The notes beneath the pieces were generated by a model, which was not told the origin of the DNA, ran no database searches, and was given only the letters and a program-made list of their open reading frames with translations. A program made the position numbers and the translations under genes. 64,000 nt of DNA, from positions 1,439 through 65,438 of the forward strand of contig DASZRY010000001.1 of the NCBI GenBank assembly GCA_035548975.1, in the 5' to 3' direction. This DNA comes from Rhizomicrobium sp. Lineage in GTDB: Bacteria > Pseudomonadota > Alphaproteobacteria > Micropepsales > Micropepsaceae. This document shows positions 24,651 through 34,533 of the stretch, piece by piece; the stretch's first letter is position 1, and the number at the start of each line of letters is the position of its first letter.

Positions 24651-25565
24651 ATGAATTGGATCGCAAATTTCGTTCGCCCGAAGATCAAGAGCTGGATCGC
24701 CCGGCGCAGCGAGACGCCGGAAAACCTCTGGACCAAATGTCCGGGTTGCGGCGAGATGATTTTTCACAAGGATCTCGTAGCTGCACTTTACGTGTGCCCG
24801 CAGTGCGGATTTCACATGCGCGTGGGCCCGAAGGAACGTTTTGCGTGGACGTTCGATGCCGGCTCCTATGAAGAGCTTCCGCAGCCGCCTGTTGCTGCCG
24901 ATCCCCTGAAATTCCGAGACGAGAAGCGTTATTCGGACCGCATAAAGGATGCACGCGCCAAGACCGGACGGCAGGATGCTTTGGTAGCCGCGCGCGGCAC
25001 TCTGGACGGTCTTCCTGTGATGATCGCAGTGCAGCCGTTCGATTTCATGGGCGGCTCGCTCGGCATGGCCGTCGGCGAGGCTCTGGTGCAGGCAATGCAG
25101 GCCGCAGTGAACGAGCGCCGTGCGTTTATTCTCTATTCGTCCTCCGGCGGCGCGCGAATGCAGGAAGGCATTCTTTCGCTGATGCAAATGCCGCGCGTGA
25201 CCATTACGGTCGATATGCTCGACGAGGCGCGGCTGCCATATATCGTCGTACTCACCGATCCTACGACCGGCGGAGTGAGCGCGTCTTATGCGATGCTGGG
25301 CGATATTCAGCTTGCGGAGCCCGGTGCATTGATCGGCTTCGCGGGGCAGCGCGTGATTGAACAGACGATCCGCGAGAAGCTTCCGGAAGGATTTCAGCGC
25401 GCGGAATATCTGCGCGATCACGGCATGGTGGATATGGTCGTGCATCGCCATGAGATGCGCGCCACGCTTTCGCGCCTTGTCCACATTCTGATGAAGAAGC
25501 CCAAGCCCAAATCGCGCCAGCCCGCGCAGACCGTAACGGGTACGGCGCTTCGCGTGCGCGCATGA
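24651..25565 (+). CDS. accD: Acetyl-CoA carboxylase carboxyltransferase beta subunit
   Basis: Zn finger KCPGC...[29 protein letters not shown]. Confidence 0.96.
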
Positions 25566-26878
25566 GCGTGGCCGCCGAAAGCGACCTGATCCTTCAACGC
25601 CTGCTGTCGCTGCACCCCAAGAAGATCGATCTTGTGCTGGATCGCATACAGCGCCTGCTCGCCGATCTCGGACATCCCGAATTGCGGTTGCCGCCAATCC
25701 TTCATGTGGCGGGAACAAACGGGAAGGGATCAACCTGCGCGTTTGCGCGCGCAATGCTGGAAGCGCAAGGCCTGAAGGTGCATGTTTATACTTCGCCGCA
25801 TCTGGTGCAATTCAACGAACGTATTCGCCTGGCGGGACGTCTCATCACCGAAGAGGAGCTTTCCGCCACGCTTGCGGAATGCGAGAGTGTGAATGACGGA
25901 GCGCCCATTACGTTCTTCGAAATCACGACCGCTGCGGCATTTCTCGCTTTCGCGCGGCATCCGGCCGACGCGCTGGTGCTGGAAGTGGGATTGGGCGGAA
26001 AGTATGACGCCACCAATGTGATTGCAAATCCGCAAGCCGCCATCATCACGCCGGTCGGACTGGATCATGCGGAATTCCTCGGCACTTCGATTGCCGATAT
26101 TGCGGCGGAAAAGGCGGGCATCATCAAGCGTGGGATTCCGGTGATCGTAGGCGCGCAGGACGACATCCCGCGAGATGTCATCACGCGCCGCGCGGATGCA
26201 TTGGATGCGCCCTTGATCGCGTTCGGGCAGGATTTCTTTGCGCATCAGGAACACGGGCGCATGGTCTATCAGGATATGGATGGGCTGCTGGATTTACCGC
26301 TGCCGAAGTTGATCGGCCGGCATCAAATTGAAAATGCGGCGACAGCCATTGCAGCTCTACGCCACGCCAACAAAGGTTGGGGCGAAGACGCGGCGATTGA
26401 GAAAGGTCTGAGAACCGTCGAATGGCCGGCGCGGTTGCAGCGGTTGACACATGGGCCGCTCATCGATCTTGCGCCCAAGGGTTCCGAAGTCTGGCTGGAT
26501 GGAGGACACAATCCGCACGGGGCGCAGGCTCTCGCACGCGCTATCGCCGATCTCGAAGATCGCGCGGAGCGGCCGCTTTATCTGATTTGCGGAATGCTGC
26601 GCACGAAGGACGCGGTTGGATATCTTTCAGCGTTCCAGGGGCTGGCGCGACATGTCACGACTGTTCCCATAGAAGGCGAGGCCGCAAGCCAGGGATCGGG
26701 TGCGCTTTACGACGCAGTGCGCGAGGCAGGGCTTGAAGCCTCTCCCGCCGACGATCTCGAAGACGCGATGATGCAGGTAAACGCCTGGGCAAGGTCGCGG
26801 CCTTCGGAACCCGCACCCCGTATCTTGATATGCGGGTCGCTATATCTTGCGGGGCAGGTGCTGGCGGAAAACGGATAA
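25562..26878 (+). CDS. folC: Folylpolyglutamate synthase/dihydrofolate synthase
   Basis: [43 protein letters not shown]. Confidence 0.96.
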
Positions 26879-26985
26879 CCATACAGACCAGCAAGCTTGC
26901 AATCGTTACTGGTTTGTAAATCCCTAAAACTTTCAACAAATCTCAGCGTACCCGGTAAGCGGCTGGCATCGCATTTTGTAGCAGG

Positions 26986-29900
26986 ATGGAGCAGCGGCCG
27001 CGGACAACTCGCGGGCAGAACTGGGGCTTTTGCGCAATGGCGCAGCGCGCGACGAAGTTTGCCAAGAAGACGTCACGCCACGTTGAAGTGGGCGCGCTTG
27101 CGCGCGCGCCGTCCACTGCGAAAGACGAAATGCGCAGCGTGCCTCTCGATCTGCTGCCGTTGCTGCAGCCCTTCAAGAAGCGCGGGCGGCTCTCGGTGCG
27201 GGTCGAGAAGCTGCCGATCCAGGCACGCCTTTCCGCGGGCCGCAACAATGGCGACCGTTCCTACTCGTTGATGATGGACGAGTTGGAGGATCTCGAATAT
27301 CTCGCTCCCGAAGGCACCGATCCGCGGCCGGTTCTATCGGTGCGTGTGATCAGCCTCGATGACGGCGACGCTTCGACCATCGCGGTGAAGGAAATCACCG
27401 TGGAATTCGGCGAGGAAGAGAATTTCGGCGAAATAGATCTCGCGAACATCAGCAATGATGAGCTGCGCCGCCTGATCGAAGAATTGACGCGCGTGAAATC
27501 CACACTGTCGCTGCGCGAAGCGGAATTGAACGAAATTCGTTCCAAGAACAGCGCCAACGGTAAATTGCCGCCGGGAACTTTCGAGGCTGAACTCGCCGCC
27601 GCACGCGCGGCTTGGAAGGTCGAGATGGACGAGAAGATCGCCAAGGTCAAAGCCGAGGCGGCCGCAAATCTCGAACGGAGCTGGAGCGCCTGGCAGGCCG
27701 AGCAGGAAAAGAAATCCGGCGCCGCCGATATCGAGAAAGAACGCATCCGCTGGCAGCAGGAAAGCGTGGCAGCCATAGCGCGCGCGGAAAAGGAGTGGAA
27801 AGCGGCCGAAGAGCGGCGCTTCGTGGCGGCCGAAGCCAAGTGGCGCGAGCACACCGAAGCCCAGGTGGAAAAGACGCGCGCTTCCTCCCGCGCGATGCGC
27901 GAGCATGGCGATCAGATCGAGTTGCGGCGCCTGCGCGACGAATTGCTGGCAATGCAAAATCTGCTTGCCGAGCGCGACGCGGAAATTGCGCAGATGCGGG
28001 CGTCCGGCCCCAAAGCGGCTCCGCAGGGCAGGCAGGAGATCGAAGCCGCCGTCGCAAAGGCGCAGAAAGAATGGAAGGAAGCAGAAGCGGCTCGCTTTTC
28101 GGCCGCCGAAGCGCGCTGGAAGGAACTGACGGAGAAAGCCGTTGCGGAAGCACTGTCCAACTCCAAACCCGGGCGCGATCAGGGCGAAGCGGAATTGCGC
28201 CGCCTGCGCGAGGAGTTGTCCACAACACAGGCCAAGCTTGCCAATCGCGAAAAGGAGTTGGCGCAATCCCACTCGACGTCGAAGTCCGGCCGCGAGCAAA
28301 CCGATTCCGAATTGCGGCGCCTGCGGGATCAGGCATCCACGCTCCAGGTCAAACTCATCGAGCGGGAAAAGGAGCTGGCACAGGCACAGGTCGCGATACG
28401 CGAGGCGCAGGAAAGCGAGCGGCGGAACGCGGAAGCCGTTCTGAACAAGGCCGAGCAGAGCTGGAAGGCGCGCGAAGCGGAGCGCTTCGCCGCCGCCCAG
28501 GCGCAATGGCAGGAAAAGACCGCCAAAGCGATCGCAGAAGCGCACGCGCAAGCCAAAGCCGAACTTGCGAAGGAACGCGAGCGCTGGAAAGCGGAAGCCG
28601 ATGCGACGCTTGCAAAAGCCGAAGCGGTTTGGAAGGCGCGGGAAGCCGATCGCCTTGCCGCCGCCGAATCCCAGTGGCAGCAGAAATCGTCAAGCGCGCT
28701 GTCTGAGGCGCGCGCGCAGATCCAGGCGGCCCGCGATCAGAGCGAACTCGAACTGACGCGTCTGCGCACAGAACTCACCATCGCACAGACCAGGCTCTCC
28801 GAACGCGACGCCTCTCTGGCCGAGGCGCGCGCCACCATTGAGCGCGTGCGCGAAGAAAGCAAAGCCAATCTTATCAATGCTGAGAAAGCGTGGCGAACCG
28901 AAGAAAACGCGCGTGCCGCTGCTGTCGAGAAGCGGATGCGCGAACAGGCAGGCTCCGCGCTCACGGAGGCTGAGATAGCGCGCAAGGAAGCAGAGGCCGA
29001 ACTTCGCAAATTGCGGGAACACTCCGCGGTTATCGAAGCCACGCTAGCCGACCGCGAACTGGAACTCACACAGGCCATCGCCCGCATCAATGCCACCGAG
29101 CGCCAGCTCGACGATTTGCGAGAGAACGAAGACATCCAGGTGCGCCGCGTGAAAGGCGAGGTCGCCGCGCTCGAAAAGCAGCTTGCGGAACGCGACGAAG
29201 AACTCGCGCAGGCCCGTCTCTTTGCCGAACGGTCCTACGAGCGTTGGCAAAAACAGGCAGAAGCCGAACTTGCCAAGGCGCAGAAGGCATGGAAGTCCGC
29301 GGAAGCTTCGCGATTGGCTGCAGCACGCGCCGAATGGCAGGAAGAATCCCGCAAGGCGTTGCAGGAATCGCTAGAAGCAGAGCGACGTTCCGGCCGATTG
29401 CCGCCCGTGCGCGCGCCGGAAGAAGCCGTCAGCGTCGATATCGCGGGGATTGCCGAAGACCGTCCAATGCCGGAATTCGCGCCGCCGCCGCAGAACGCTC
29501 CTTATGCGCCGCCGAGAGCGCCCATCGTCGATGCGCGCCATGCCGCCGACGAGGCGCTCGACCGTCTGGCGATGGATGCGTATCAATTGCTGGCCAGCGC
29601 CGGTTCTGTGGATGCCGTCAGCCCCACCGATACGAAGATCATCAAGGGGGGATTCATCGAGCGCCGCAAGGCCGACCGCGCAAAGAATGACAACACCACC
29701 TGGATCATGGCAGGCGCGGCGGCCGGCGTTGCAGCCCTCGTTGCCGTCATCGCACTATTCTTCTTGCCATCGTCCTCGGGAAGCGATGTCGCCGCAATGT
29801 CGCAGCAGCCTGTTCCGAAAGCGGCGCCCGCGTCCTTGCCGCAGAAGCCCGTGCTGCCAAAGGCCACGATGCTGCGCACGATGAATGTGCGCTCAGGTCC

Positions 29901-30330
29901 TTCGACCTCGGACGAAATCGTCACCACATTGAAGGAGGGCGAGCTTGTCACGCCGGGCGAGCGTAAGGGGAATTGGATACACATCGATATCGATGCGGCG
30001 AACGGCATGCCGGCAATGAAGGGGTGGGTGCTGGCCAGCTCGCTGCAGCTGCCCGCTGGTCTGCCAGAGGGACCTGCTCCCGAGACTGCAGCCCCCGAAG
30101 CCGCCACAGACACTGCGGAGCCCGCCTCACCACCCGCCACAGCGCCGGAAAAGGTCGAGGCCCAGGCCCCGGAGCCTGCGCAAACGACCGCGCCGCCGCC
30201 CGAAGAGGCTCAGACGCCTGCACCGCCACAGCCGCAGGCCTCCACCCCGGAGCCAGAGCCGCAGTCTCCCGTGCCGGCCGCCCCGGCCGCAGACCCATCG
30301 GCGGCCCCAGCTCCCTCTCCGGCCCAGTAG
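26986..30330 (+). CDS. Giant hypothetical protein: Ig/cadherin-like N domain, long repeat coiled coil, single TM, SH3b domain, Pro/Ala-rich tail
   Basis: LSAGRNNGDRSYSL..ELEDL N-domain; repeated WK..E..R.AAAE..W and ELRRLR.E......L..RE.ELAQ units; TM at ~29701-29769; NVRSGPST...GNWIHI...GWV SH3b; start 26986 or 27037. Confidence 0.85.
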   Translation: MEQRPRTTRGQNWGFCAMAQRATKFAKKTSRHVEVGALARAPSTAKDEMRSVPLDLLPLLQPFKKRGRLSVRVEKLPIQARLSAGRNNGDRSYSLMMDELEDLEYLAPEGTDPRPVLSVRVISLDDGDASTIAVKEITVEFGEEENFGEIDLANISNDELRRLIEELTRVKSTLSLREAELNEIRSKNSANGKLPPGTFEAELAAARAAWKVEMDEKIAKVKAEAAANLERSWSAWQAEQEKKSGAADIEKERIRWQQESVAAIARAEKEWKAAEERRFVAAEAKWREHTEAQVEKTRASSRAMREHGDQIELRRLRDELLAMQNLLAERDAEIAQMRASGPKAAPQGRQEIEAAVAKAQKEWKEAEAARFSAAEARWKELTEKAVAEALSNSKPGRDQGEAELRRLREELSTTQAKLANREKELAQSHSTSKSGREQTDSELRRLRDQASTLQVKLIEREKELAQAQVAIREAQESERRNAEAVLNKAEQSWKAREAERFAAAQAQWQEKTAKAIAEAHAQAKAELAKERERWKAEADATLAKAEAVWKAREADRLAAAESQWQQKSSSALSEARAQIQAARDQSELELTRLRTELTIAQTRLSERDASLAEARATIERVREESKANLINAEKAWRTEENARAAAVEKRMREQAGSALTEAEIARKEAEAELRKLREHSAVIEATLADRELELTQAIARINATERQLDDLRENEDIQVRRVKGEVAALEKQLAERDEELAQARLFAERSYERWQKQAEAELAKAQKAWKSAEASRLAAARAEWQEESRKALQESLEAERRSGRLPPVRAPEEAVSVDIAGIAEDRPMPEFAPPPQNAPYAPPRAPIVDARHAADEALDRLAMDAYQLLASAGSVDAVSPTDTKIIKGGFIERRKADRAKNDNTTWIMAGAAAGVAALVAVIALFFLPSSSGSDVAAMSQQPVPKAAPASLPQKPVLPKATMLRTMNVRSGPSTSDEIVTTLKEGELVTPGERKGNWIHIDIDAANGMPAMKGWVLASSLQLPAGLPEGPAPETAAPEAATDTAEPASPPATAPEKVEAQAPEPAQTTAPPPEEAQTPAPPQPQASTPEPEPQSPVPAAPAADPSAAPAPSPAQ

Positions 30331-30443: not shown

Positions 30444-30779
30444 ATGCTTCGCAAGATTTTTATCGGGGCTGCCTGCGGCCTTTCCATCGTGACGATTTCC
30501 TCGCCGTCAATGGCGCTGGACGCGCTGATGCTCCCCAATGCGCAAACTGCAAGTACGCCCAATTCGGCGGCGCTCATCCAAACACCGGATGACAAGAAGG
30601 ACGACAAGAGTTCCTGGCACTTCAGCGTTTCCGGCAATTCCGGCGGATATGCCGGTCGGAACATGTTCGCACCCGGCGCATTCGGCCCGAATTCCGATCC
30701 GTCGAACCCGATGGGACCGATGAAGACCTATGGCCCGCCGGATAGCCAGCAGACGAGCGACCCTTTTTTCCATAACTGA
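30444..30779 (+). CDS. Small secreted hypothetical protein
   Basis: GAGGAGGAG RBS; N-terminal signal peptide; Gly/Pro/Ser-rich body. Confidence 0.7.
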   Translation: MLRKIFIGAACGLSIVTISSPSMALDALMLPNAQTASTPNSAALIQTPDDKKDDKSSWHFSVSGNSGGYAGRNMFAPGAFGPNSDPSNPMGPMKTYGPPDSQQTSDPFFHN

Positions 30780-30903
30780 ACCAGCGGGCGTATAGTTGTT
30801 CCATCACGAAGGTTGCGGGTTTCTCGCGACCGACGGCGAGTTCGGCCGCCTGGCCAGCAGCGATTCCCGCATCCCGAAAGCAAACGCTTTGGGAGGAACG
30901 CTT

Positions 30904-31770
30904 ATGACCATCAGAAACCCCATCGAGTGGAGCGGTTCGCAATTGGTGAATGCCGCCAATGCCGTGCGTTACGCGACCGATTCCCTGCATCACATCCAGG
31001 AAACCATCCACTCTCCCGCCCCTGCAGTGCGCCACATCCATTTCGCCGATATCACGGAGTCGCTGAAGCAGGGCTTTGCGGATTTTCAGGCCTATCGCAC
31101 CGACGTGATCTTCCTGTGCGTGATCTATGTCGTGCTCGGACTTGTGTTCGCGCGGCTGGCATTTGGCATGGATCTGCTGCCGCTTCTCTTCCCGCTTGCT
31201 TCCGGGTTCGCGATCATCGGACCGTTCGCCGCGGTCGGCCTCTATGAAATGAGCCGTCTGCGCGAGCAGGGCATCGAAGCGAAATGGACAAATGCGTTCG
31301 ACGTGTTTCGCGCGCCCGCAGTGGGAGCGATTTCGGTCTTGGGTCTATTACTGATCGTAACCTTCCTTGTTTGGGTTGCCGTGGCCTGGCTTATCTATAA
31401 TGCCACGCTTGGGCCGGCCCAGCCGCAATCGCTGGGATCGTTCCTGCACGACGTGTTTTTCACTGCACCGGGTCAGATTATGATTGCGGCCGGCGTGGGC
31501 GCAGGGTTCCTTTTTGCGCTGTTTGCAATGTCGGTCAGCATTGTTTCATTTCCGCTGCTGCTCGATCGCGATGTTGGCCTCGACACCGCGGTGCGCACCT
31601 CGGTGCGCGCAGTAAAAGCCAACGTCCTGCCGATGGCGATATGGGGGATGATTGTCGCCGGGGCACTGGTGCTGGGTTCGCTTCCGCTGTTCGTAGGGCT
31701 TGTCGTCGTACTGCCCGTGCTTGGCCATGCGACGTGGCACCTCTACCGAAGGTTGGTTGCCTCCGCCTAA
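30904..31770 (+). CDS. DUF2189 family integral membrane protein
   Basis: LFPLASGFAIIGPFAAVGLYEMSR, VLPVLGHATWHLYRR; multiple TMs. Confidence 0.9.
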   Translation: MTIRNPIEWSGSQLVNAANAVRYATDSLHHIQETIHSPAPAVRHIHFADITESLKQGFADFQAYRTDVIFLCVIYVVLGLVFARLAFGMDLLPLLFPLASGFAIIGPFAAVGLYEMSRLREQGIEAKWTNAFDVFRAPAVGAISVLGLLLIVTFLVWVAVAWLIYNATLGPAQPQSLGSFLHDVFFTAPGQIMIAAGVGAGFLFALFAMSVSIVSFPLLLDRDVGLDTAVRTSVRAVKANVLPMAIWGMIVAGALVLGSLPLFVGLVVVLPVLGHATWHLYRRLVASA

Positions 31771-32106: not shown

Positions 32107-33828
32107 ATGACGATTCACAATCCCGAGATTGCAAAGCTGTTCGATCGTTACGCGGTGCTTCTGGAGATTCAAGGCGCCAATCCTTTCCGGATTCGTGCCT
32201 ATCGAAACGCAGCGCGAACGATCGAGAATTTGCCGCGCGATATTCCGGCCATGCTGGCGGAGGGCGCCGATCTCGCAGAACTTCCGGGCATCGGCGAGGA
32301 CCTGGCCCACAAGATTGCGAACATCGTCGCCACCGAGCAATTCGCAGAACTGGAAAAGCTCAAACATCGAATGCCGATCGCGTTGGCAGACCTTACCGAA
32401 GTACCGGGAATCGGGCCGCATCGCGTCAAGACGCTTTATCGTCTTCTGAAAATCAAATCGCTGAAGGATCTTGCCGCGGCTGCGCGCAAGGGCCGTTTGA
32501 AGGAACTCCCGGGGTTCGGCCCGAGGATTGAAGCCAATATCCTGAAGAACGTCGAACAGCAATTGACCGAGCACCATCGCTACAAGCTCTCCGACGCGCA
32601 ACATATCGCGGAGTCTCTTGTCGCCTATCTCAAGGCGATACCCGGCGTGGACAAGGCCCAGGTGGCGGGCAGCTATCGCCGCCGAAAGGAAACGGTGGGC
32701 GATCTCGATATTCTCGTGACGTGCGCCAGGAGTGCGACAGTCATCGAGAAGTTCGTTTCCTATTCGGAAGTGAAAGAGGTTCTCGCGAAAGGATCGACGC
32801 GCGCTTCTGTCAAGCTGAGATCTGGCATCCAGATCGATCTAAGGGTGGTGCCGGAGCGCAGCTATGGCGCAGCGCTCGTTTATTTCACGGGTTCCAAGGC
32901 GCACAACATTGCAATACGGGCGCTGGGCCTGAAGCGCCATCTCAAATTCAATGAATATGGCGTATTTCGCGGCAAGAGATGGATCGCAGGGCGCAGCGAG
33001 AAGGACGTATATGCGCAAGTGGGACTTCCCTACATCGAGCCTGAATTGCGTGAAAACCAGGGAGAGCTAGAGGCTGCAAAACTCGGACAGCTTCCCGAAC
33101 TGATCCGCATGGAGGACATAAAGGGCGATCTTCACGTTCACACCGATGCGAGCGATGGCGAAGCCACTCTTGAAGAAATGGTGAAAGCGGCGAAAGAGCT
33201 CGGCTATCGCTATATCGCCATCACCGATCATTCCAAACACATCGGCATAACGCATGGCCTCGACACGCGCAGGCTTGCAGCCCAAATGCGAGCGATCGAC
33301 AGGCTCAACGGCAAGCTGCGTGGCATCGAAATTTTGAAGTCGGCGGAAGTCGATATCATGGCGGATGGATCGCTCGCGCTGCCGGACGGCATTCTCGAAG
33401 ATCTCGATCTTGTGGTCGCCGCAGTACATTCGAAATTCGATCTCGATGCGCAGGCCCAGACCGATCGCATGATTCGCGCGATGGACAACCCTCACGTCAA
33501 TATCATAGCCCACCCATTCGGCCGGCTTTTGGAGGAACGGGCGCCCTGTCAGCTCGATATACAGAGGTTGATGAAAGCTGCGCTCGAGCGTGGATGCCAT
33601 CTGGAAGTGAACGGCCAGCCGGCGCGGCTGGATTTGTCCGACGTGCATTGCCGCATGGCCAAACAGCTCGGCCTGAAACTTGCGATCTCGACCGATGCAC
33701 ACACGCCTGAAACGCTCGGCTATATGCGTTATGGTGTGGATCAGGCCAGGCGGGGCTGGCTTGAACCTTCCGACGTGCTCAATACCCGCGATCTTTCCGA
33801 CTTGCGGCGCCTGCTCAAGCGCCGGTAG
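32107..33828 (+). CDS. polX: DNA polymerase X with PHP 3'-5' exonuclease/phosphoesterase domain
   Basis: GANPFRIRAYR, HhH LPGIG, GSYRRRKETVGDLD, IDLRVV, YFTGSK.HN; PHP DLHVHT, TDH, STDAH. Confidence 0.95.
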   Translation: MTIHNPEIAKLFDRYAVLLEIQGANPFRIRAYRNAARTIENLPRDIPAMLAEGADLAELPGIGEDLAHKIANIVATEQFAELEKLKHRMPIALADLTEVPGIGPHRVKTLYRLLKIKSLKDLAAAARKGRLKELPGFGPRIEANILKNVEQQLTEHHRYKLSDAQHIAESLVAYLKAIPGVDKAQVAGSYRRRKETVGDLDILVTCARSATVIEKFVSYSEVKEVLAKGSTRASVKLRSGIQIDLRVVPERSYGAALVYFTGSKAHNIAIRALGLKRHLKFNEYGVFRGKRWIAGRSEKDVYAQVGLPYIEPELRENQGELEAAKLGQLPELIRMEDIKGDLHVHTDASDGEATLEEMVKAAKELGYRYIAITDHSKHIGITHGLDTRRLAAQMRAIDRLNGKLRGIEILKSAEVDIMADGSLALPDGILEDLDLVVAAVHSKFDLDAQAQTDRMIRAMDNPHVNIIAHPFGRLLEERAPCQLDIQRLMKAALERGCHLEVNGQPARLDLSDVHCRMAKQLGLKLAISTDAHTPETLGYMRYGVDQARRGWLEPSDVLNTRDLSDLRRLLKRR

Positions 33829-33936
33829 GCGGCGGCGCAATTTAATTTCCAAAAATCCCGGAGGGATTTTGCCCGCCGATCCGTGGTTAGGGATGTGGAC
33901 ATAGCCGTAAACCCCGAAAGGCAGGGTGCCCAAGGG

Positions 33937-34533
33937 ATGGCAGACAGGCCAAAAACAGAGGCGGGAGAACCAGCGTTGCCGCGCATCGGCGATGCGCCGG
34001 GAATGGACGCGCTCAAGGCCTGGTTTGTTCGCGAAGTGCTGCCGCTGGAGGCCGTGTTGATTCAATATTTGAGTCGCGGTGGACGCAGCAAATCCGACGT
34101 CGAGGATTTGCGCCAGGACCTCTACATGCGCGTCTGCCTGGCGGCGCAGCAGGAGCTTCCACGCGCCACGCGGCCGTTCGTTTTCAAGATTGCGCGCAAT
34201 CTTCTGATCGACCGGGTGCGCCACGAGCAGGTGGTACCTATCGACCAGGCGGAGAACCTAGAAGACCTCAACATCGCCATCGATGAACCAACGCCCGACC
34301 GCACGGTTATCGCGCGACAGGAGCTGCGGCGCCTGCAGCGCATTCTCGACAAGCTGCCAGAACGCTTCCGCAACGCCATCGTGATGCGCAAGGTGGAAGG
34401 GTTATCCGTGCGCGAAATCTCCGAACGCACCGGCGCGGCTGAAAAGACCGTGGAAAAACATCTGACCGAAGGGATGCGCGCGCTCGCCGAAGAACTGTAT
34501 CGGGATACGGCCGAAACGGGGAGGTCGACTTGA
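33937..34533 (+). CDS. ECF (FecI-like) RNA polymerase sigma factor
   Basis: Region 2 DVEDLRQDLYMRV...FKIARNLLIDRVR; region 4 LDKLPERFR...EGLSVREIS. Confidence 0.9.
   Translation: MADRPKTEAGEPALPRIGDAPGMDALKAWFVREVLPLEAVLIQYLSRGGRSKSDVEDLRQDLYMRVCLAAQQELPRATRPFVFKIARNLLIDRVRHEQVVPIDQAENLEDLNIAIDEPTPDRTVIARQELRRLQRILDKLPERFRNAIVMRKVEGLSVREISERTGAAEKTVEKHLTEGMRALAEELYRDTAETGRST

Follow-up and report, generated by a model that had tools for sequence, protein, structure and literature searches.

A predicted inner-membrane coiled-coil protein with an adhesin-related head and an SH3b domain, encoded in a Rhizomicrobium genome

We present here a computational analysis of a large gene from Rhizomicrobium sp. 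(order Micropepsales, Alphaproteobacteria), located in a 64,000-nucleotide stretch of GenBank assembly GCA_035548975.1 (contig DASZRY010000001.1, positions 1,439 to 65,438, forward strand), which is called the window below. The encoded protein consists, from the N terminus, of a short basic peptide, a β-sandwich head, a long α-helical rod with two repeat types, a single transmembrane (TM) helix, an SH3b domain, and a disordered tail (Table 1). The head is related to repeats of giant RTX adhesins and is predicted, with the rod, to be cytoplasmic. An earlier reading of the DNA, made from its letters and open reading frames (ORFs) and called the original prediction here, had listed these elements, apart from the basic peptide, at 26986-30330, and every one that it listed was confirmed in its place.

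Gene and family

The longest ORF is uninterrupted in the window. Its full length of 1114 amino acids (aa), which had been taken as that of the protein, is an overestimate by 17 residues. The gene most likely begins at Met18 (nucleotide 27037) and extends over 27037..30330, encoding 1097 aa, because homologues and the database gene call begin at that residue. Every close homologue opens with MAQRATKFAKK, the residues found at Met18, and an identical protein is annotated in the public database with a length of 1097 aa. The 17 codons 5′ of Met18 (MEQRPRTTRGQNWGFCA, 26986-27036) are open and are conserved in none of the homologues.

In a search of 5.8 billion proteins, 170 homologues were found; those with a name are called "SH3 domain-containing protein" or "hypothetical" or bear generic coiled-coil labels. 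Their named sources are metagenome-assembled genomes (MAGs) assigned to Rhizomicrobium, Micropepsaceae, Stellaceae, and unclassified Alphaproteobacteria. The family comprises at least 120 members, all of them from uncultured MAGs of the Micropepsales type and of a few other alphaproteobacterial lineages. Orthologues at 60-81% identity retain every module, and a 57-sequence full-length alignment retains the N-terminal peptide, the head, alternating ELRRLR and W units, the TM helix, and the SH3b domain. Conservation is highest in the head, in the W motif with its invariant W, E, R, and W, and in the SH3b domain. Whole-protein scans against Pfam and NCBIfam gave SH3_3 as the sole match, and literature searches found no paper describing the architecture. 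The family had been called new, and no match to a characterized family was found.

The basic N-terminal peptide has the family consensus MAQR[AV][TS]GFA[KR][KR]P, with the motif at residue 2 in 51 of the 120 members. ParB, PomX, TlpT, and McdB, which are partners of ParA, use ATPase-activating N-terminal peptides, and the peptide MAQRATGFAKKP might act in the same way, the protein then being a wall-anchored landmark for ParA/MinD-type positioning that would anchor or pattern cargo such as a chromosome, a plasmid, or a protein cluster. The position of the basic peptide at the extreme N terminus in about half of the family fits this idea, but the other half is without the peptide as called, the resemblance to activating peptides is only compositional, and the loci inspected have no adjacent ParA-like gene. 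We consider such a landmark role distinctly improbable.

Table 1. Features of the gene and its surroundings (window coordinates; P0001 and P0002 mark residue numberings)
Feature	Coordinates	Strand	Basis
Longest ORF, 1114 aa including stop codon	26986..30330	+	Uninterrupted in window
Probable start at Met18; conserved basic N-terminal peptide MAQRATKFAKKT	27037..27072	+	Homologue starts
N-terminal β-sandwich head, P0001 aa 50-138	27133..27399	+	AF2 pLDDT 91-93, reciprocal profile homology
α-Helical rod, P0001 aa 157-801	27454..29388	+	AF2 secondary structure, helix breakers, periodicity
ELRRLR-type unit E0, degenerate (LRRLIEEL...REAELNEIR)	27466..27555	+	
W unit 1 (W256/W271/W286)	27730..27885	+	Inspection and W-unit profile
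ELRRLR unit E1	27913..28005	+	
W unit 2 (W363/W378)	28006..28170	+	Inspection and W-unit profile
ELRRLR unit E2	28186..28278	+	
ELRRLR unit E3	28303..28395	+	
W unit 3 (W493/W508)	28396..28560	+	Inspection and W-unit profile
W unit 4 (W534/W549/W564)	28564..28725	+	Inspection and W-unit profile
ELRRLR unit E4 (ELTRLR)	28744..28824	+	
W unit 5, degenerate (W636; Met replaces second Trp)	28825..28980	+	Inspection; not recovered by W-unit profile at E<=1e-5
ELRRLR unit E5 (ELRKLR)	28993..29085	+	
ELRRLR unit E6, degenerate (IQVRRVK...ERDEELAQAR)	29128..29220	+	
W unit 6 (W754/W769/W784)	29224..29385	+	Inspection and W-unit profile
Disordered Pro-rich linker, short juxtamembrane helix (P0002 aa 828-853), and basic patch RRKADRAK	29389..29700	+	
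Single TM helix, P0001 aa 906-925	29701..29760	+	Hydropathy, AF2 helix, positive-inside bias
Predicted periplasmic SH3b domain (Pfam SH3_3)	29863..30045	+	Pfam score, AF2, Foldseek
Disordered Pro/Ala/Glu-rich C-terminal tail (~aa 1021-1114)	30046..30327	+	
111-aa protein, apparent signal peptide	30444-30779		No Pfam match
DUF2189 integral membrane protein	30901-31770		
PolX	32107-33828		HHH_8, Pol beta palm/thumb, PHP
ECF-type sigma factor	33883-34533		

Membrane topology and the SH3b domain

The TM helix follows the patch RRKADRAK, as had been predicted together with an N-in orientation, and was modeled at 889-908 (P0002 numbering) by AlphaFold2 (AF2). The 110 members with a clear TM helix carry a mean of 3.7 Lys plus Arg residues in the 15 residues before it and 0.9 in the 15 after it; the positive-inside bias is N-in in 100, tied in 7, and reversed in 3. 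No hydrophobic segment is present in the first 60 residues of 116 of the 120 members, and the window protein is without an N-terminal signal peptide, in agreement with the cytoplasmic placement first proposed for the N-terminal domain. This N-in bias across the family predicts that the SH3b domain lies in the periplasm and that the head and rod lie in the cytoplasm, which puts ~890 residues on the cytoplasmic side. The opposite topology, which the original prediction had itself named in advance as counting against it, is not what the family statistics predict. The term "trans-envelope" went too far, as only spanning of the inner membrane is supported.

The predicted periplasmic part is compact across the family (median, ~116 aa). 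Its SH3b domain, of ~60 residues, lies ~35 residues past the TM helix and matches SH3_3 (PF08239) at aa 966-1020 with 31.5 bits, relative to a gathering cut-off of 27; most homologues have a precomputed PF08239 match. The domain was modeled at 943-1000 (P0002) with a predicted local distance difference test (pLDDT) score of ~94. Its Foldseek neighbors, all at probability 1.0, are 4krt, 6biq, 4r0k, and 2kyb (root mean square deviation, 1.5-2.8 Å over ~65 residues), which belong to the SH3b domains of cell-wall enzymes and stem from a phage endolysin, NlpC/P60 enzymes, and DPP-VI. A Foldseek search with the full model gave SH3 matches only. The tail beyond the domain consists of 31% Pro and 28% Ala over aa 1030-1114, so that the proposed order of SH3b domain and Pro/Ala tail holds for the window protein. 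The tail occurs mainly in the window's own clade and outside it only in P0030 and P0076.

Head domain

The 90-aa head was modeled from a 36-sequence alignment as a seven-stranded sandwich with one helix (pLDDT, 90.8; predicted template modeling [pTM] score, 0.82). It is the best-conserved part of the protein, with 64% mean column identity, and contains the invariant positions E28, G39, N41, N42, D44, S48, R74, and T85 and an invariant GRNNGD loop. It is present in a single copy in the protein, which is also the only copy in the genome.

An exhaustive search of 1.84 billion representatives with the head profile gave 1891 matches, the top ones being proteins of 1000-7600 aa with up to 45 tandem copies. 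Five of these giant proteins were scanned and contain Pfam Big_9, Cadherin_4, and Cadherin_5 domains; P0139 alone adds RTX HemolysinCabind repeats. Each adhesin repeat aligns with the head profile (alignment A1) at ~50 bits (E ~1e-17) over profile positions 3-95. In the reverse direction, a profile built from 216 adhesin repeats only matched the window protein at P0002 aa 35-116 (E 1e-12) and recovered 119 of the 120 family members against a decoy background. Since the profile searches match in both directions, the homology is taken to be real, and the resemblance to cadherin/Ig-like repeats of type I secretion system adhesins that had been noted at first proved to be true homology. By these profiles, the tandem repeat of the Big_9/Cadherin_4 type that is found in giant RTX adhesins recurs in the head as one diverged copy. 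The two share the core motif LS.G..NGD.SW.L...L..L and full-length homology, whereas the giant RTX adhesins carry 6-45 tandem copies and the head here is single and predicted to be cytoplasmic.

Direct domain searches gave no such match. Neither Big_9 nor Cadherin_4/5 was found by Pfam in the full protein at E<=1 or in 36 family N-terminal domains at E<=10, and the head profile had no match among Protein Data Bank (PDB) sequences. Foldseek of the head model against the PDB gave nothing significant, the best hits being PsaA pilin, FN3, and Ig domains at E 0.04 with TM scores of <=0.5. A specific cadherin fold match is thus unsupported by Foldseek, although the repeat homology holds.

The head and the adhesin repeat differ strongly in charge. 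A basic PYKKRGR segment, which reads PFKKRGR in the window protein and is modeled as a helix by AF2, takes the place of the acidic TDTDGSE loop; Lys plus Arg number 0 per adhesin repeat versus ~11 per head, and the net charge is -23 versus about -3. This recharging would fit a Ca-independent version working in the cytoplasm.

The kinship also raises the question of whether the protein is itself an exported, adhesin-like protein of opposite topology, with head and rod outside the cytoplasm and the SH3 domain and tail inside, since all head relatives detected outside the family are in giant RTX-type, presumably secreted, proteins. We regard this as highly improbable. Besides the missing signal peptides and the strong N-in bias, a hydrophilic N-terminal tail of 890 residues has no known export route when it lacks a signal, and the head is richer in basic residues than the adhesin repeats and no longer has the acidic loop. 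HemolysinCabind RTX repeats were not found in the window protein (Pfam scan, E<=1), and SH3b domains of the present type accompany extracytoplasmic wall enzymes.

Helical rod

The rod corresponds to the ~650-aa coiled-coil region originally described. AF2 models it as a row of seven long helices, with lengths of 32-143 residues and brief Gly/Pro/Ser interruptions between them, at 140-171, 181-226, 232-322, 332-411, 419-561, 569-686, and 697-784 (P0002). These have pLDDT values of 65-83 and total ~598 helical residues, within a full-length monomer model of pLDDT 68 and pTM 0.30. At 0.15 nm per residue, the rod could reach up to ~90 nm if fully extended.

Regular expressions and manual inspection located six W-K-x-x-E-x-x-R...W units (aa 271, 363, 493, 549, 636 [degenerate], and 769) and seven ELRRLR-type units (~aa 167 [degenerate], 312, 403, 442, 589, 672, and 717 [degenerate]), the very numbers that had been estimated. 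A family W-unit profile independently recovered five of the six W units (E 1e-13 to 1e-17). The two types had been described as interleaved, which is true as a rough alternation and not as a strict one, given the doublets E2E3, W3W4, and E5E6. The 57-sequence alignment yields the unit consensuses ELRRLRxEL...LAxRExELAxAR and AALAKAExxWKAxEAARLAAAEAxW, and a 32-unit alignment of W units (A3) has W, E (+4), R (+7), and W (+15) invariant, giving the motif W-x3-E-x2-R-x7-W.

The hydrophobic periodicities of the two unit types differ. W units have large hydrophobic residues at -15, -7, 0, +8, +15, and +23 (an 8/7 alternation) with Ala between them, which is a pentadecad with 3.75 residues per turn; family-wide, 708 of 1986 consecutive Trp pairs are exactly 15 residues apart. 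ELRRLR units have large hydrophobic residues at 1, 4, 8, 15, and 22, a heptad with ~3.5 residues per turn. Because of this difference, the rod is predicted to alternate between two packing regimes. W units were seen only in proteins of the present architecture in W-unit profile scans, and the W-unit profile matched no solved structure in the PDB significantly. Homology to the Trp-rich tetramerization helix of acetylcholinesterase, the best PDB match, was rejected (E 0.087, not significant). That entry, 1vzj, with which the W unit at 28006-28170 was compared, is a Trp-rich WAT helix that wraps a polyproline helix; as a curiosity, the protein of the window's clade has a Pro-rich tail, but across the membrane from the W units.

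Rod length varies ~2.8-fold in the family (422-1164 aa), with 1-7 W units, and this variation argues against a fixed-length ruler and for a tether or platform. The length, segmentation, Ala richness, and conserved repeat motifs of the rod might also bring to mind an intermediate-filament-like, self-assembling membrane skeleton comparable to crescentin, FilP, or Scy, in which filaments or a lattice would line the inner membrane, SH3b domains would rivet them to peptidoglycan, and the head would mediate head-to-head or lateral assembly and not cargo recruitment. The descent of the head from repeats that stack in tandem arrays and the invariant W/E/R positions, suggestive of specific inter-helix contacts, would suit such a skeleton. 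The wide variation in rod length and W-unit number speaks against it, however, as does a patchy distribution, unusual for a shape-determining skeleton, and polymerization finds no support in the sequences. We judge a skeleton of this kind unlikely, though it is the strongest of the alternatives.

The AT skew over the rod-coding region is very strong (0.35-0.41 at window positions 27500-29500), because the Glu/Ala/Lys/Arg/Gln-rich repeats make the coding strand purine rich. The same region contains many long spurious ORFs on both strands.

Distribution and gene neighborhood

Scanning 185,579 species genomes for the head pattern GRNNGDx[ST][WY]S gave 88 loci, all of them in MAGs and none from a cultured or characterized organism. 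The W-unit profile was positive in 6 of 301 evenly drawn alphaproteobacterial genomes, and the outlying positives all show the layout of head, W units, TM helix, and SH3b domain. Of the 151 high-quality genomes of the window's order, 66 (44%) carry the gene, and these represent three of seven genera, a frequency that argues against a core polarity determinant.

Some genomes contain two family copies or an expanded version. L029 and L030 are both in MAG MFD03726.bin.1.54, C3 and C4 are both in G352, and C18 of G452 is a further case; in G452, 14 matches to the W unit were counted, and those listed fall within one 1316-aa frame. These cases indicate duplication and repeat expansion within the family. 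Loci L011, L017, L036, and L082 come from MAGs labeled "uncultured Rhizobium sp.," "Acidobacteriaceae," and "Betaproteobacteria." Judged by the distribution of the rest of the family, they are probably mislabeled or misbinned contigs and not occurrences beyond Micropepsales-like lineages.

In the window, trpA, accD, and folC lie upstream on the same strand. The neighbors are FolC, a small exported protein, the DUF2189 membrane protein, PolX, and an extracytoplasmic function (ECF) sigma factor. The 111-aa exported protein, directly downstream, and the DUF2189 protein are kept beside the gene in loci L010, L012, and L013 and not in distant loci. The arrangement of trpA-accD-folC upstream and exported protein/DUF2189 downstream is conserved in the five closest loci only, and the gene seems to stand alone. 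PolX and the ECF-type sigma factor that follows it are ordinary and unrelated. PADLOC and PHROG profiles gave no match at E<=0.01, and no defense or phage signatures were found. Bactofilin is present in the window's genome and in all 151 genomes of the order; being universal there, its co-occurrence says nothing about the gene. The succession of accD-folC and a predicted bitopic protein with a putative wall-binding domain at 24651-30330 recalls the order accD-folC-dedD of Escherichia coli, in which DedD is a bitopic SPOR-domain division protein; the likeness may be a coincidence or an old positional habit.

Proposed function

We propose, with a probability of roughly one-half, that the protein is a bitopic inner-membrane protein that acts as a cytoplasmic scaffold or tether pinned to peptidoglycan. 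It would be fixed to the sacculus by its SH3b domain. The rod would homo-oligomerize, probably as a parallel dimer, and would project up to its full reach into the cytoplasm or along the membrane on its cytoplasmic side. The head and the basic N-terminal peptide would bind a partner and so draw a cytoplasmic component to a position fixed by the wall.

Several points weigh against this proposal. All family members come from MAGs. De novo clustering of flanking ORFs at 80 loci, about 75 of them beyond the closest five, found no recurrent partner. Because so few genomes of the order carry the gene, which is common there but patchy, its role would be accessory. With a full-length monomer pTM of 0.30, AF2 does not fix the oligomeric state or the geometry of the rod. 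Sequence matches of the SH3b domain to solved SH3b domains are weak, and peptidoglycan binding is suggested by the context of the domain family. The overall interpretation in the original prediction is thus partly supported: its architecture and topology are backed by family-wide evidence, while the polarity or cytoskeletal role and the link to a cytoplasmic filament that it proposed are conjectural; a conserved partner gene is missing, and the gene is in only 44% of the order's genomes.

A bolder version of the tether can be formulated, which we put forward as speculative and somewhat less probable still than the membrane skeleton. The head would be the first recognized internalized Ca-dependent adhesin repeat, serving as the cargo-binding head of a peptidoglycan-riveted cytoplasmic tether of up to ~90 nm, with a rod of alternating left-handed heptad and pentadecad Trp-zipper segments, and this tether would fix a cytoplasmic structure at a wall-defined site in the prosthecate, budding Micropepsales. 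If so, candidate cargo would include a storage granule, machinery at the site of a stalk or bud, or cargo positioned by ParA, and the protein would represent a new class of bacterial spatial organizer.

The anatomy of the protein is well defined and partly surprising, although no long-standing question hinges on it. Two features, an adhesin repeat that has apparently been re-engineered for the cytoplasm and a rod that would alternate heptad and pentadecad packing, with an invariant Trp/Glu/Arg motif, are of wider interest for protein evolution and structural biology. The head domain and the W unit (alignments A1 and A3) are defined well enough to be registered as new domain and repeat families. 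If localization proves to be discrete, the protein would offer a new handle on cell organization in Micropepsales.

Comparison with known systems

PodJ, Csd5, and FimV/HubP are bitopic scaffolds between cytoplasm and wall by which bacteria fix positional information, and to our knowledge, each was found genetically in a model organism. By sequence, the window protein is a member of none of the characterized families and appears to represent an unrelated, undescribed family of the same bitopic coiled-coil envelope scaffold kind. It would be a sequence-unrelated solution in abundant, uncultured soil and peat Alphaproteobacteria.

In FimV/HubP proteins, a LysM domain at the N terminus lies in the periplasm and an acidic region lies in the cytoplasm. 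LysM is absent from the window protein (Pfam scan), so membership was rejected, as was membership in the YgiM-like family TIGR04211 (SH3_and_anchor), for which the score was 14.1 bits versus an NCBIfam cut-off of 65. What FimV/HubP/TspA, YgiM, and the window protein share is a bitopic envelope layout that joins a membrane anchor and extended stretches to a periplasmic domain of a wall-binding type.

GPR/RgsE of Rhizobiales carries apolipoprotein PF01442 repeats over ~75% of its 2115 aa and has its two TM helices at the N terminus. Like the window protein, it is very long, mostly α-helical, and membrane anchored, with its bulk in the cytoplasm. The window protein does not belong to its family, having no PF01442 match at E<=1 and one C-proximal TM helix in place of two N-terminal ones; it also has an SH3b domain, which GPR lacks.

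PodJ of Caulobacter/Sinorhizobium has cytoplasmic coiled coils that recruit partners, an intrinsically disordered region, a single TM helix, and a periplasmic C-terminal domain. The window protein is like it in this layout only. PodJ is without an Ig-like head and without W/ELRRLR repeats, and the window family is patchy and was not found in cultured model organisms. The periplasmic part of PodJ carries Sel1/TPR repeats and a PG_binding_1 domain; both are absent from the window protein at E<=1 (Pfam), where SH3b stands in their place, and membership was rejected. The parallels to PodJ and GPR/RgsE drawn in the original prediction therefore hold as architectural analogies, whereas the defining domains of both are absent.

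Csd5 of Helicobacter pylori binds peptidoglycan in the periplasm through its SH3 domain, its cytoplasmic part recruits the bactofilin CcmA, and it has been reported as unique to Helicobacter. Compared by description, Csd5 and the window protein are both non-enzymatic and bitopic, with a C-terminal SH3 domain, but the latter has ~890 cytoplasmic residues, an Ig-like head, and a 650-aa rod. Csd5 is small, with an N-terminal TM helix and only a short peptide in the cytoplasm. By analogy, Csd5 would be the closest functional precedent for the window protein and PodJ the closest architectural one.

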